Made by a program: the position numbers and the translations under genes. Shown piece by piece: positions 6,730 through 31,009 of a stretch of DNA of 42,750 bases. Position 1 is the stretch's first letter. Every line of letters starts with the position of its first letter. This DNA comes from an uncultured Candidatus Saccharibacteria bacterium (GTDB lineage: Bacteria; Patescibacteriota; UBA1384; XYA2-FULL-43-10): contig CAZLCL010000004.1 of assembly GCA_964558315.1 (NCBI GenBank), positions 7,221-49,970 on the forward strand, in the 5' to 3' direction. The notes under the pieces are model-generated. The model saw only the letters and a list, made by a program, of their open reading frames with translations, searched no databases and was not told where the DNA came from.

Positions 6730-8877
6730 ATGCAAAATAAGTCATTTTTGAAAAAAGCTTTTTTGGCGACAAAAAGTGTTGCTCCTGGTTATTTTTTGTT
6801 GACGGAAAAAGTAGAAGAAAAATCCAACGAGTCTTTTTTGTTATTTATTATTGAATCCCACGATGACAAATTTGGTAAAAAATTTCAACAAATTACTCAT
6901 CAGCATGTTACAAAAGAATTTCTTTCTAACAATAATTACTCCCTTTTGAATTTTGAAGAGAGCCTCAACAATGTTAATAAATACTTTTTAAATAATCAGA
7001 CTGCTGAACAGCAATCTTCGCTTAACGCTTTTATCGGTTTTTATCAAGATTTTACTCTCCATATTTCGATGATCGGCTCCATTGAAGGTTATTTATTAAG
7101 AAAAGGCAAAATTAATTCGTTGACCGAAGGTTTAAGTAGTAATAATGATACGAGCTTTGTAAATATTACCAGTGGCGAATTACTGGCTTTAGATTCAATT
7201 ATTGTCGGCAATAAAAACTTTTTTGATCGGCTTTCTTTGGACAGAATTAGAAGAACAATTGATCACTTAAGTCCCAAAGAAGCTACCAGAGATTTTTTTA
7301 GGATATTGAGAAAAAATCACTTTTTAGACTGCAATTCAATCATTTTAAATGTTTCCCCTTATGGTAATGACAATAATGCATCTGATATTGACGATACAGA
7401 TGAGATTATTTATCTTGATGAAATAGAGGAGACAAAACTTTCGCATACATGGAAAACAATTAAGCCATTTTTAATCAAATTTTTATCTTATTTAGCTACT
7501 GCTATTAACCGATCCGGAAAACTATTATTGCAATTGTGGCGTAAAATTTCCCAATCTTGGGATACTAAGTATCGCCAAAAAACTAAGGAATTTATTAACG
7601 AAACCGGTAAAAATACTAAAAAAGGCCTGAATAGCGTTTCATCGAACATTAGACAAGGGATAAAACCAAAATCATCTAAGGTAAAAATTAAGTCTTATCA
7701 AGGTGCCGAAAAAAATTATTTTCTATATATCAAAAACATCATAAATTTTATTATAGTTAGTCTTATAAAACTGTTTAAAAAAGAGAATCGAAAATATCTT
7801 TACACATTTTTGCTACTTGTTTTAATACTAACTTCTTATTTAAAAATCGTTTCAAATAACAAAAATAGGGATTCAATCAAACAACAAAACGATGCAAAGT
7901 ATGCCCTAGAGCAAGCTGAGGCATCCCTTCAAAAAGCCAACGAAGACATCTCTTTGGGTAGATCAAACGGCATGGAGACTTTATCCCAAGCACTTGACTA
8001 TCTATCTCAAGCCGAAAATAATCCGGCCATTCTTGAATCAGCTCAAAAAATTAAAAAGGATATTTACTCGAAAATTGATGGTATCACAAACACAATTAGG
8101 TTATCTAATCCATCGGCAATTTTTTCTTTCAACCACGCCGTTTCAGTAACCGCAATATCCGGCTCAGTAATTTATGGTATTACCGAAGATGGCAAAATAT
8201 ATTTTACCGACGCAAGAGATAAAGACCCAAGATTAATAAGTGCAATAGATTCGACTTTTGGCAAACCTTTGTCGGCTTCTTATTCAGAGAACACCGGCCT
8301 CTTGTATATTTTAACCGATAAACCAACCATTTGGGCATTTGATCCTCTTGCACAATCAGGCGCAGAGATAGAGGTCACAGAGAGCAGTTGGGAAGCAGGC
8401 AATGCGATAACCACTTATAGCACTAATCTATATCTTTTGGATTCTGTAAATGGAAAAATCTGGCGACATAGCGAAAACGGCCAAAAATTTAATAAAGGTG
8501 TTTCCTATGCTGGTAATAGTAACGCCGCGTTGAACGGTGTTTCGTTGGCGATAGATGGTAGTATTTATGTATTGAAAGAGGATTCTACTATCGTAAAATT
8601 TTCTCATGGCACATCGGATACAAATTTCTCTCTGCAGAATCCTCCTCAACCTGATAGTAAAATTTCTAAGGCCGAATCAATTATTACTGACTCAGACTCA
8701 CAAAATATTTATATTCTTGATTCAGATCAAAATCGGATTCTGGAATTTGCCAAAGATGGTAAATTCGTCAAACAGTATCGTTTAGAAGGAAAAGATATTA
8801 GCTCCTTTCAAATTAACCCTCGAGTTCAAAAAATGTGGGTTTTTTGCCAGAATGAAGTATTCGAAATAGATTTATAA
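6730..8877 (+). CDS. Large membrane protein of unknown function: cytoplasmic N-domain, central TM region, C-terminal beta-propeller-like (NHL/YncE-like) repeats
   Basis: Hydrophobic segments lie around aa 330-375 (FLYIKNIINFIIVSLIKLF, YLYTFLLLVLILTSYLKIV). The C-terminal third has about 6 repeats of the type IY(I/L)LD...I..F (e.g. NIYILDSDQNRILEFAKDGKFVKQY). Confidence 0.5.
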   Translation: MQNKSFLKKAFLATKSVAPGYFLLTEKVEEKSNESFLLFIIESHDDKFGKKFQQITHQHVTKEFLSNNNYSLLNFEESLNNVNKYFLNNQTAEQQSSLNAFIGFYQDFTLHISMIGSIEGYLLRKGKINSLTEGLSSNNDTSFVNITSGELLALDSIIVGNKNFFDRLSLDRIRRTIDHLSPKEATRDFFRILRKNHFLDCNSIILNVSPYGNDNNASDIDDTDEIIYLDEIEETKLSHTWKTIKPFLIKFLSYLATAINRSGKLLLQLWRKISQSWDTKYRQKTKEFINETGKNTKKGLNSVSSNIRQGIKPKSSKVKIKSYQGAEKNYFLYIKNIINFIIVSLIKLFKKENRKYLYTFLLLVLILTSYLKIVSNNKNRDSIKQQNDAKYALEQAEASLQKANEDISLGRSNGMETLSQALDYLSQAENNPAILESAQKIKKDIYSKIDGITNTIRLSNPSAIFSFNHAVSVTAISGSVIYGITEDGKIYFTDARDKDPRLISAIDSTFGKPLSASYSENTGLLYILTDKPTIWAFDPLAQSGAEIEVTESSWEAGNAITTYSTNLYLLDSVNGKIWRHSENGQKFNKGVSYAGNSNAALNGVSLAIDGSIYVLKEDSTIVKFSHGTSDTNFSLQNPPQPDSKISKAESIITDSDSQNIYILDSDQNRILEFAKDGKFVKQYRLEGKDISSFQINPRVQKMWVFCQNEVFEIDL

Positions 8878-29716: not shown

Positions 29717-30082
29717 TTATTCAGCAGACGCCAAGTCAGAACTTTGTTCATCTAAATGGTTTACTTTTGACACCGGCTCCATCTCCGGTTTTTGAACGTC
29801 TTGATCAATTTCTTGTAGAGATTGTAATCTGACTTTTTCTACCTCAAGCCTTTCCTTCTTAAGTTCAAGCTGATCTTTTTTATCATTGATATCTCTAATT
29901 TTTATACTTCTATTCGCCCCTTCCGTAGCTTGTGTTAAATATACCAAAGATAATATGGTAAAAATTGATATTGCCACATATTTTATTGTATTAGCTCCTA
30001 TAGCAAATTCCCTTTTTACCATTCTTTTTTTTATCCCCAGTTGAGATTTATTTGAGTTGGTAATTGTTAACATTCTTCCCAT
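29717..30082 (-). CDS. FtsL-like small bitopic cell-division protein
   Basis: 121 aa with one TM helix (YVAISIFTILSLVYL) followed by a coiled coil (KKDQLELKKERLEVEKVRLQSLQE). It sits between mraZ and ftsI. SD is AGGAGAAACAGATG. Confidence 0.55.
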   Translation of the reverse strand: MGRMLTITNSNKSQLGIKKRMVKREFAIGANTIKYVAISIFTILSLVYLTQATEGANRSIKIRDINDKKDQLELKKERLEVEKVRLQSLQEIDQDVQKPEMEPVSKVNHLDEQSSDLASAE

Positions 30083-30109
30083 CTGTTTCTCCTATTATTC
30101 TCATCTTTT

Positions 30110-30275
30110 ACTTTCACAAATCAGCAGCCAGCATATTTTTATTTTTATTATTTTTGGTATAATATTTTAGTAAAGATGCCTCTCAGATAATCTGAGAGGT
30201 TTTATTTTTGTTTTTAATAGAATAAGTTGCCTTATGCCCCTCCGCTGTTGGACCTGGCTGCTGATTTGTGAAAGT
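30110..30275. mobile_element. MITE-like non-autonomous element: 166 bp bounded by perfect 22-bp terminal inverted repeats, TTTT on both flanks
   Basis: ACTTTCACAAATCAGCAGCCAG at 30110-30131 is the exact reverse complement of 30254-30275 (checked base by base). TTTT lies at 30106-30109 and at 30276-30279. No ORF lies inside. Confidence 0.5.
30178..30216 (+). terminator. Intrinsic-terminator-like hairpin inside the MITE-like element, antisense to the dcw operon
   Basis: CCTCTCAGA-TAA-TCTGAGAGG (9-bp stem) is followed by TTTTATTTTTGTTTTT on the plus strand. It is preceded by an extended -10 (TGGTATAAT, 30155-30163). Confidence 0.5.
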
Positions 30276-30285
30276 TTTTAATGTT

Positions 30286-30717
30286 CTAAAATCCAATTTG
30301 GTCTAAATTTTCCGCTACCTCTTCTGAATTGTTTTCCATTTCAGTTTTAAACTTTTGCCACTCTTCATCCGGCCATATTTCTATACGATTATATACTCCG
30401 TTTACAGATATTTTGCTTTTTATTTTGGCATACTGTAACAAATATTTAGGCAAAACTATGCGACCACTCTTATCCAATTCTGCTTCAACGGCTCCAGCCA
30501 ACATTAGTCTTGAAAAACTTCTCGCATTTTTTTGAGTAATTGGCAGATTAGAAATTTTCTCCGCTAATAATTGAAATTCATCTTTGGGATAAACCCACAA
30601 ACAATGATCTAGCCCTCTCGTTACAACACAACCATTAGATAACTGATTTCTAAATTTTGAGGGCATAGATATACGATTTTTGTCATCTACACTATGAGAG
30701 TATTCGCCAATAAACAT
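30286..30717 (-). CDS. mraZ: Transcriptional regulator MraZ
   Basis: Two SpoVT/AbrB-like halves carry the DxxxR motifs (DDKNRISMPSKFR and LDKSGRIVLPKYL). It is the first gene of the dcw cluster. Confidence 0.9.
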   Translation of the reverse strand: MFIGEYSHSVDDKNRISMPSKFRNQLSNGCVVTRGLDHCLWVYPKDEFQLLAEKISNLPITQKNARSFSRLMLAGAVEAELDKSGRIVLPKYLLQYAKIKSKISVNGVYNRIEIWPDEEWQKFKTEMENNSEEVAENLDQIGF

Positions 30718-30873
30718 ATTGATAAAAGTTAATAATTACAGCCGACCTATAAAATGCGACGATGTCGTAAACTCTTCCCTCATCTTTTTAAATATGCATT
30801 TTTATTTAAGTTGATGAATGTTAAATTCAACAACATTTAGAACATTTTTGTTTTTGGATAGATTAGTGGTATT

Positions 30874-30898
30874 CCACTTTATCCCACTTTTTACCACT
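30874..30898 (-). promoter_or_regulatory. MraZ operator: three AGTGG boxes phased at exactly 10 bp
   Basis: Plus-strand CCACT lies at 30874-30878, 30884-30888 and 30894-30898. The minus strand reads AGTGGTAAAA AGTGGGATAA AGTGGAATAC, about 160-180 nt upstream of the mraZ ATG. Confidence 0.65.
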
Positions 30899-31009
30899 AG
30901 CTTACATATTAGACCTGTATGGCTATTTGGTCAAAGCATAAATAATCCATTTTTGTGGATAAAGTTGTGGACAAATACTTGTATATAAATATTTCTAATA
31001 CAGCATTAA

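Follow-up and report, generated by a model that had tools for sequence, protein, structure and literature searches.

We analysed a stretch of 42,750 nucleotides (hereafter the window; positions 7,221 to 49,970 of the forward strand of contig CAZLCL010000004.1, GenBank assembly GCA_964558315.1) from an uncultured Candidatus Saccharibacteria bacterium, whose genome (G000) comprises 852 kb with 37% G+C and is 94% complete. On the minus strand of the window, mraZ (143 aa, 30286..30717) is an open reading frame (ORF) that ends with the stop codon TAG at 30288-30286. It is followed by an ftsL-like gene (121 aa, 29717-30082), the start codon of which (ATG, 30082-30080) is preceded by its own Shine-Dalgarno (SD) sequence, AGGAG, at 30093-30089. 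The 208-nt spacer between the two genes harbors an element of 166 bp with an AT-rich interior, no ORF and perfect 22-bp inverted repeats at its ends. The comparisons described below indicate that this is very probably a conserved, non-mobile RNA element on the sense strand of the division and cell wall (dcw) operon. As judged from alignment and model searches, the window element is the reduced local orthologue of a single-copy structured RNA that lies immediately 3' of mraZ order-wide and is shared by at least one further family of the class.

The inverted repeat, which had been described in an earlier note on this DNA, was confirmed: the arms at 30110-30131 and 30254-30275 are exact reverse complements (22/22 nt) with 122 nt between them. 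The 22-mer occurs in the window only at these two sites, even when up to three mismatches are allowed, and dinucleotide shuffles expect 0.00 occurrences. The repeat is non-random and far above chance. The minus strand of the spacer folds with -62.9 kcal/mol (z = -9.5) and the plus strand with -65.6 kcal/mol (z = -9.0), and no shuffle folds equally well in either case. On the minus strand, the arms form the closing helix P1, which was delimited by complementarity, helix search and covariation; its 5' arm is ACUUUCACAAAUCAGCAGCCAG (30254..30275) and its 3' arm is CUGGCUGCUGAUUUGUGAAAGU (30110..30131).

Conservation and covariation of the element

We searched 60 relatives with the element using BLAST, located mraZ in 45 relatives, and read the DNA 3' of mraZ in 20 of these 45; 18 order-level genomes were read. 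Full-length matches with 69-77% identity were obtained in G001, a member of the same genus, and in G005 and G003 from other genera, and all three share the context glyS, mraZ, a spacer of ~205-243 nt and ftsL. The alignment showed that the inner stem of the helix, CAGCAGCCAG / CTGGCTGCTG, is invariant, whereas the outer stem varies among genomes yet remains complementary; in G005, both arms of the outer stem are changed at four positions. All 18 order-level genomes have mraZ, then an ORF-free spacer of ~180-760 nt, then ftsL. The layout of the spacer is also kept order-wide, with the 5' arm RTCAGCAGCCAG, CCAGTAGCCAG or a variant, then ATCAAAAACAAAAA, variable hairpins, a second ACAAAAA tract and the complementary 3' arm. 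Larger versions add GCCCGTTCTCGTTTG and CGGAGGAGGACAAAGGAGGGGCAAAGG after the 5' arm, and the 166-nt version in the window is the shortest of the set.

An ungapped helix search detected the closing helix in 24 of 24 mraZ-downstream spacers, with a length of 12-29 bp (median 23) and an interior of 92 to 264 nt that carries lineage-specific insertions. The helix pairs over these spacers comprise 484 Watson-Crick pairs, 17 G.U pairs, 11 C.A pairs and 15 other mismatches. When 13 sequences were aligned in a common register, 94.7% of the cells were paired and 17 of the 25 pairs had changed on both sides, while the inner 6 pairs of P1 were nearly invariant. None of 500 column shuffles reached any of five pairing measures, and pairing fell to 21-49% when the partners were slid by 1-3 columns. 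The element is under strong purifying and compensatory selection. The perfect arms had been ascribed to a recent event or to selection. Selection for pairing is borne out by these data, but recency is not, because 17 of 25 pairs are compensatory.

A covariance model (R1) built from the 13-sequence alignment found exactly one locus per genome in 39 of the 44 genomes of the order. Comparison of the coordinates in the 39 genomes showed that each match abuts mraZ and lies on the strand of mraZ; in five of them R1 matched a second time, to the other strand of this palindromic locus. The model is order-specific, as 118 genomes from elsewhere in the class gave only two weak matches. In a metagenome scan, a specific pattern recovered one genuine further copy (L137) and three matches due to chance. 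The loose pattern CAGCAGCCAG-N(105-135)-CTGGCTGCTG had 119 matches over the genome contigs, mostly chance matches in GC-rich genomes.

The window element resembles miniature inverted-repeat transposable elements (MITEs) in its length of 166 bp, its perfect terminal inverted repeats, its AT-rich interior and its lack of an ORF, and it had been taken for a recent MITE-like insertion. However, this inverted repeat is conserved at precisely the same position in further genera and families, which refutes that reading. The element is single-copy at an orthologous site order-wide, its arms covary and its interior contains invariant motifs. A search for further copies or an autonomous partner found the 22-mer nowhere else in the 852-kb genome, and the collection scans returned chance matches and orthologous loci; none of the 39 genomes with an R1 match had dispersed extra copies. 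No empty site was found either, since all 24 relatives inspected carry the element in the mraZ slot in the same orientation. The flanking TTTT, proposed as a target duplication, is merely an A/T run that is not conserved as a duplication, and in G005 and G001 the helix continues there by 1-2 further pairs. A blastn search of 50,697 phage records with the window element and a full-size relative gave no match.

The orphan Shine-Dalgarno core and the conserved interior

The interior contains an orphan SD-like core, GGAGGGGCAUAAGGC (30229..30243, minus strand), which was defined by invariant alignment columns. Within the clade of the window GGAGGGGCA is invariant, and full-size relatives carry CAAAGGAGGGGCAAAGG. 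The GGAGG of the core is complementary to the 3' end of the genome's 16S rRNA, GGAUCACCUCCUUUCU (this end is also given as CCUCCUUU and, set against GGAGG(GGCA), as ...CACCUCCUUUCU). In the relatives and in the mfd leader described below, AAAGGAGG provides 8 nt complementary to the 16S 3' end. Several start codons in the genome have the 9-mer of the core as their genuine ribosome-binding site. No conserved start codon or ORF follows the core in the element alignments and spacers inspected. A small ORF behind the core was considered and rejected, as neither the window's frame led by the rare codon AUA nor the AUG frame of five codons in G006 is conserved. The core 17-mer had a single match in IMG/VR, which fell on a normal ribosome-binding site of a GC-rich phage.

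In full-size relatives, the core ACAAAGGAGGGGC pairs with an upstream anti-core, GCCCGUUCUCGUUUG, and G007 has a U.G pair that is valid on the sense strand in this helix. The clade of the window has lost the anti-core segment and the GGAGGAGGACAAA part, and a 4-bp stem GUCC/GGGC with GGAG in its loop is predicted to be left. In the window, the minimum free energy structure from RNAfold places this mini-hairpin at 30236..30253 on the minus strand, with GUCC at 30253-30250, GGGC at 30239-30236 and the loop AACAGCGGAG. It looks like a remnant of the GCCC...GGGC ends of the anti-core/core helix of full-size relatives. With the anti-core lost and GGAG in a loop, the SD sequence would be more exposed in this minimal form.

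Two A-rich tracts and a hairpin occupy the rest of the interior on the minus strand. Tract 1, CUAUUAAAAACAAAAAUAAAA (30200..30220, from the alignment), follows the family motif AUCAAAAACAAAAA; the tract is found order-wide, and its AAAAACAAAAA is invariant over four genera. The adjoining variable hairpin (30179..30199, from complementarity) has 9-10 bp and the loop UUA, and five genomes have differing yet self-complementary sequences at this site, two of them with one C.A mismatch on the sense strand. Tract 2, UAUACCAAAAAUAAUAAAAAUAAAAAUAUG, spans 30132..30161, and its reverse complement holds TGGTATAAT; a second (A)ACAAAAA tract lies immediately 5' of the 3' arm in most genomes. Since the version in the window is the shortest (166 nt), it marks the likely minimal core, consisting of the closing helix, GGAGGGGCA, two A-rich tracts and one hairpin.

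Two other features of the arms were observed. The f4 family relatives G010, G014, G012 and G020 (L145, L157, L146 and L158, respectively) have a conserved internal CAGCUUU(UU) complementary to AAAAAGCUG, which covers the last A-tract and extends into the beginning of the 3' arm. Competition of this segment with the inner closing helix, as an alternative fold or a switch, is possible. In addition, the inner arm is CCAGCAGCC in G002 and G003, with the window counterpart UCAGCAGCC at 30254-30262. CCAGCAGCC is also a 9-nt stretch of the universal '515' region of 16S rRNA, GCCAGCAGCCGC; the identity is probably fortuitous, with no established significance.

The identical 17-20-nt core is found at a second locus in the genome, (A)GCCAAAGGAGGGGCAAAGGC (L159/L162; G000:C17:12585-12665, in the mRNA sense). 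This locus follows the rplK terminator and contains a variable hairpin and a 10-bp closing stem GTGCTATCTG/CAGATAGCAC; 62 nt downstream of it is the AUG of an mfd-like gene encoding 606 aa. At least eight further genomes of the order share the locus (G001, G002, G004, G005, G006, G007, G010 and G012). The distance to the mfd-like AUG is 62-73 nt in eight of the nine genomes, and 211 nt to the first ATG in G007; the AUG has no SD sequence of its own in the genomes read. The locus had no match in Rfam 15. As it lies upstream of the mfd-like gene in the mRNA sense, its interpretation as an antisense 'anti-SD' small RNA was dropped.

With respect to the core, the closest known thing is the STAB-SD of Bacillus thuringiensis cry3A, a 5' mRNA stabilizer (Agaisse and Lereclus 1996, as summarized in PMC4113751). 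As in the STAB-SD summarized there, the core of the element is an SD-like sequence that opens no ORF and has complementarity to the 16S 3' end, and RNase J, the enzyme that STAB-SD blocks, is encoded in the genome. However, the core lies inside a structured element closed by a helix, it is paired with the anti-core in full-size versions, and a stabilizing role comparable to the one summarized there is putative. A sponge for CsrA of the CsrB/RsmZ type was also considered and rejected, as no CsrA was found in the 94%-complete genome (PF02599 unmatched at E <= 0.1).

A boxA-like sequence upstream of P1 and the resemblance to rRNA leaders

Two overlapping boxA-like stretches precede the closing helix on the minus strand. 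The first, GAACAUUAAAAAC (30286-30274), begins at the last base of the mraZ stop codon, and the second, AAACUUUCACAA (30277-30266), extends into the 5' arm. The gamma-proteobacterial boxA consensus is GYTCTTTAANA (PMC5725501), and the lineage version, taken from the 16S leader of the genome's own rRNA (rrn) operon, is GAACUUUGACAA. In the window, AAACTTTCACAA differs from the rrn boxA at 2 of 12 positions (AAACUUUCACAA is likewise given with 2 mismatches), and GAACATTAAAA is present as well. At the orthologous site, G001 has GAACTTTAACAA (listed also as GAACUUUAACAA) with one mismatch, G005 has two mismatches, and G004 has GCACUUUAACAA. Over 24 genomes, the best boxA match within 45 nt upstream of the helix had on average 3.83 mismatches, compared to 5.05 +/- 0.18 in coding-sequence controls, and six genomes had three or fewer mismatches, compared to 1.25 expected from these controls. 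Since coding sequence served as the control and the motif is missing from G003, we regard the boxA-like sequence as suggestive only.

In architecture, the element is closest to an rrn leader and the helix that the leader forms with the trailer. The rrn operon of this genome has its boxA immediately followed by the 5' strand of such a leader-trailer helix, which has at least 20 bp. The Nus complex has been described as bringing the leader strand to its remote partner, thereby forming the 16S RNase III site (PMC8632103). The element likewise has a long-range helix of about 20 bp or more (22 bp in the window, median 23 in 24 genomes) that brackets untranslated RNA, with a tentative boxA-like sequence leading into it. 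It differs in that the enclosed ~120 nt are not rRNA but RNA that is mainly A-rich and carries an SD-like core, and in that it lies inside a protein-coding operon. Furthermore, the boxA-like sequence is recognizable in only part of the element family, and Nus binding and RNase III cleavage are putative here. The genes for RNase III (rnc, G000:C1:68752-69147) and NusB (nusB, 69219-69590) are adjacent on the same strand.

The 16S rRNA gene itself (G000:C15, minus strand) contains a ~700-nt insertion near its 3' end, between ...AAGTCGTAAAA and ...GTGAACAAGGTA..., with an apparent ORF. The insertion looks like an intron with a homing-endonuclease gene; such introns are common in rRNA genes of the candidate phyla radiation.

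Operon setting and comparison with known RNA families

A probable dcw promoter, TTGACC-17-TAATAT, was found by a promoter-like scan at 30934-30906 on the minus strand. GTGG direct repeats with 10-nt spacing (GTGGTAAAAAGTGGGATAAAGTGGAATACCAC) follow it within 30860..30934 and, as read from the sequence, would be the expected MraZ operator (MraZ boxes). The promoter and the boxes upstream of mraZ are the likely source of the transcript carrying the element. The A-tract motif of the family, CAAAAACAAAAA, was also seen in the 5' untranslated region of mraZ (UAUCCAAAAACAAAAAUG; 30845-30856, minus strand), just downstream of the MraZ boxes, and UAUCAAAAACAAAAAUG has one further occurrence on contig C29. 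The A-tract 12-mer occurs 10 times in the genome, compared to ~0.6 expected from base composition.

Orthologues of mraZ were found with 41-77% identity in all 45 relatives searched, and orthologues of the ftsL-like protein (MGRMLTITNS...) come after the element in the relatives. The next genes are ftsI and murF, and the neighbors glyS, mraZ and ftsL are accompanied by no adjacent recombinase or transposase ORF. The spacer had been described as the place where rsmH normally lies. The slot is indeed without rsmH; however, rsmH is intact elsewhere in the genome, relocated off the dcw cluster to another contig (G000:C30:8255-9199), and all 18 order-level relatives read mraZ, element, ftsL, with no rsmH. 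In G045, from another family of the class, rsmH is still 3' of mraZ, and the element, which there reads ATTACCAGCAACTAG ... AAGGAGGACAGC ... AATCAAAAACA ... CTAGTTGCTGGTAAT, lies between the two genes. It follows from these two arrangements that the RNA remained beside mraZ as rsmH relocated.

By position, the mraW motif, which precedes mraW (rsmH), is the nearest named element. Both are conserved structured elements in the same operon slot, and in G045 the present one stands between mraZ and rsmH. However, the hosts here are Saccharibacteria, and rsmH is not downstream of the element in the order. The motif (RF01746; Weinberg et al. 2010) is listed for Actinomycetales only (PMC2864571), and its model matched neither the window (E <= 10) nor ten relatives (E <= 1); it is thus an analogue and the element is not a member. 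At the same thresholds, no family of Rfam 15 was found for the window or the ten relatives, and literature searches found no description of this mraZ-adjacent RNA. The element family thus has no counterpart in Rfam 15 or in the papers searched.

Strand of the element and proposed mechanism

Five features favor the sense strand: the position inside the operon, the boxA-like sequence in sense orientation, the layout shared with the genome's own rrn operon, the core/anti-core helix with its U.G pair, and the second core locus in the mRNA sense. The element would then belong to the dcw transcript as an untranslated segment on the minus strand. The idea in the earlier note that the arms form a 22-bp duplex in the dcw mRNA suited to RNase III, an enzyme that the genome encodes, is retained as the best mechanism.

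On this basis, we propose the following. Nus factors on boxA would keep the 5' arm close to the polymerase until transcription has produced the 3' arm, and RNase III would cut the long helix, splitting the mraZ message from the ftsL-ftsI-mur message. Cutting would release or expose the enclosed RNA. The orphan SD could then bind the 16S 3' end in the 30S subunit in the manner of STAB-SD as summarized in PMC4113751, and 30S binding might protect an RNA from 5'-to-3' decay by RNase J or might serve as a standby or ribosome loading site. A conserved RNA with an RNase III helix and an orphan SD is probably the best explanation overall. For the processing and orphan-SD mechanism in the form stated here, we put the chances at even or slightly better.

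Several points weigh against this reading. The boxA is clear (three or fewer mismatches) in only six of 24 genomes and absent in G003, and the controls were coding sequence instead of AT-rich spacer. Genome-wide, a degenerate boxA pattern was found five times, compared to ~4.6 expected from a base-composition estimate. A Rho RNA-binding domain was not detected in the 94%-complete genome, and a role of boxA in protection from Rho was ruled out for this reason. Wobble pairing in the closing helix leaves the strand undecided, with 17 G.U pairs in the sense reading and 11 in the antisense reading. In G001 and G005, a C.A pair of the variable hairpin on the sense strand would be U.G on the plus strand, and a clade-specific antisense unit is kept as a minor rival because of it. 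The strand, the cleavage and the stability of the element RNA are all things that we infer. Finally, a double cut by RNase III would put the orphan SD on the excised fragment and off the ftsL mRNA, which makes it hard to say which RNA a STAB-SD-like core protects.

Alternative explanations

The excised RNA of ~120 nt could itself be the functional product, acting in trans after its release by RNase III, with the operon as its vehicle. It might titrate the anti-SD of free 30S subunits, or bind a protein or RNA that also recognizes the identical core in the mfd leader. The kept interior sequence fits this explanation, as the invariant GGAGGGGCA and AAAAACAAAAA would be needless for a mere cleavage site, and the rRNA-like arrangement of boxA and helix is a way of making stable RNAs. 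The recurrence of the 17-20-nt core in an unrelated second leader, in at least nine genomes, fits a common trans-acting partner. However, the interior in the window is largely unstructured and A-rich, which is unusual for a stable RNA, and the core is known from two loci, each of which stands in cis 5' of a gene. We consider a trans-acting product possible but unlikely.

Within the clade of the window, the plus strand could instead carry an antisense unit with TGGTATAAT as promoter and the hairpin at 30178-30200 with its T-run as terminator, giving an RNA of ~40 nt or interfering with dcw transcription. The plus-strand signals had been pointed out before, and they do exist: TGGTATAAT is present at 30156-30164, the 9-10-bp hairpin with its T-run scores as a plus-strand terminator, and all five members of the clade have TATAAT or TATACT. 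The G001 and G005 hairpins would also pair better on this strand. However, these signals are probably mirror images of sense motifs. On the sense strand, AUCAAAAACAAAAA-type A-rich tracts stand before and after the variable hairpin order-wide, and because such a tract with the hairpin reads as hairpin and T-run on the other strand, the 'antisense terminator' is probably the reverse complement of conserved sense sequence. Similarly, TGGTATAAT reads AUUAUACCA on the sense strand and continues there into the second A-tract (UAUACCAAAAA...), and the -10 of the 'antisense promoter' may be a by-product that mirrors UAUACCAAAAA. The -10 is kept only in the five-member clade and is absent elsewhere in the order. 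A consensus scan listed no plus-strand promoter in the element, and promoter-like sites in the region were at chance level (7, compared to 7.8 +/- 2.6 in shuffles). Furthermore, the transcript would end short of the invariant core and would leave the core and the closing helix unexplained. Such a unit is improbable.

At least as improbable is a helix that serves as a mere processing or insulating site, uncoupling mraZ from the downstream genes, with a functionless interior. The helix is the best-supported feature, and the interior, with its range of 92 to 264 nt and lineage-specific insertions, would be compatible with such a role. However, interior motifs are invariant across families and even in the minimal version, and full-size versions have a dedicated anti-core/core helix. 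The perfect terminal inverted repeats around an AT-rich segment with a promoter-like -10, and the nearly equal numbers of G.U and C.A pairs (17 and 11) with no strand bias in the helix, would fit a DNA-level element (a mobile insertion, an inverton, or a palindromic protein-binding or cruciform site), but this is highly improbable given the single copy at the same site in 39 of 44 genomes, the outer arms that covary unlike two copies of a fixed protein site, and, disfavoring active inversion, an interior orientation that is constant relative to mraZ (39/39 R1 matches and 24/24 spacers) with no adjacent recombinase ORF.

Implications

The finding carries a warning for annotation, as perfect terminal inverted repeats in reduced genomes may be RNA helices and not necessarily mobile elements. 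The window copy is the most convenient for in vitro work, and the core in the mfd leader offers a second, independent handle on the partner of the core. Saccharibacteria are ultra-small episymbionts in which the control of division is largely unknown, and the RNA occupies the slot behind the division regulator mraZ. It is conceivable, although we think it rather doubtful, that the two core loci form a small regulon read by the 16S 3' end or by one RNA-binding factor, in which the division operon would hold a miniature unit like an rRNA operon (boxA and RNase III helix) that yields or exposes a small RNA with a mimic of a ribosome-binding site as its sole invariant feature. If true, such a regulon would link the expression of genes for division, the cell wall and transcription repair to the availability of free 30S subunits in these very small bacteria that depend on a host.

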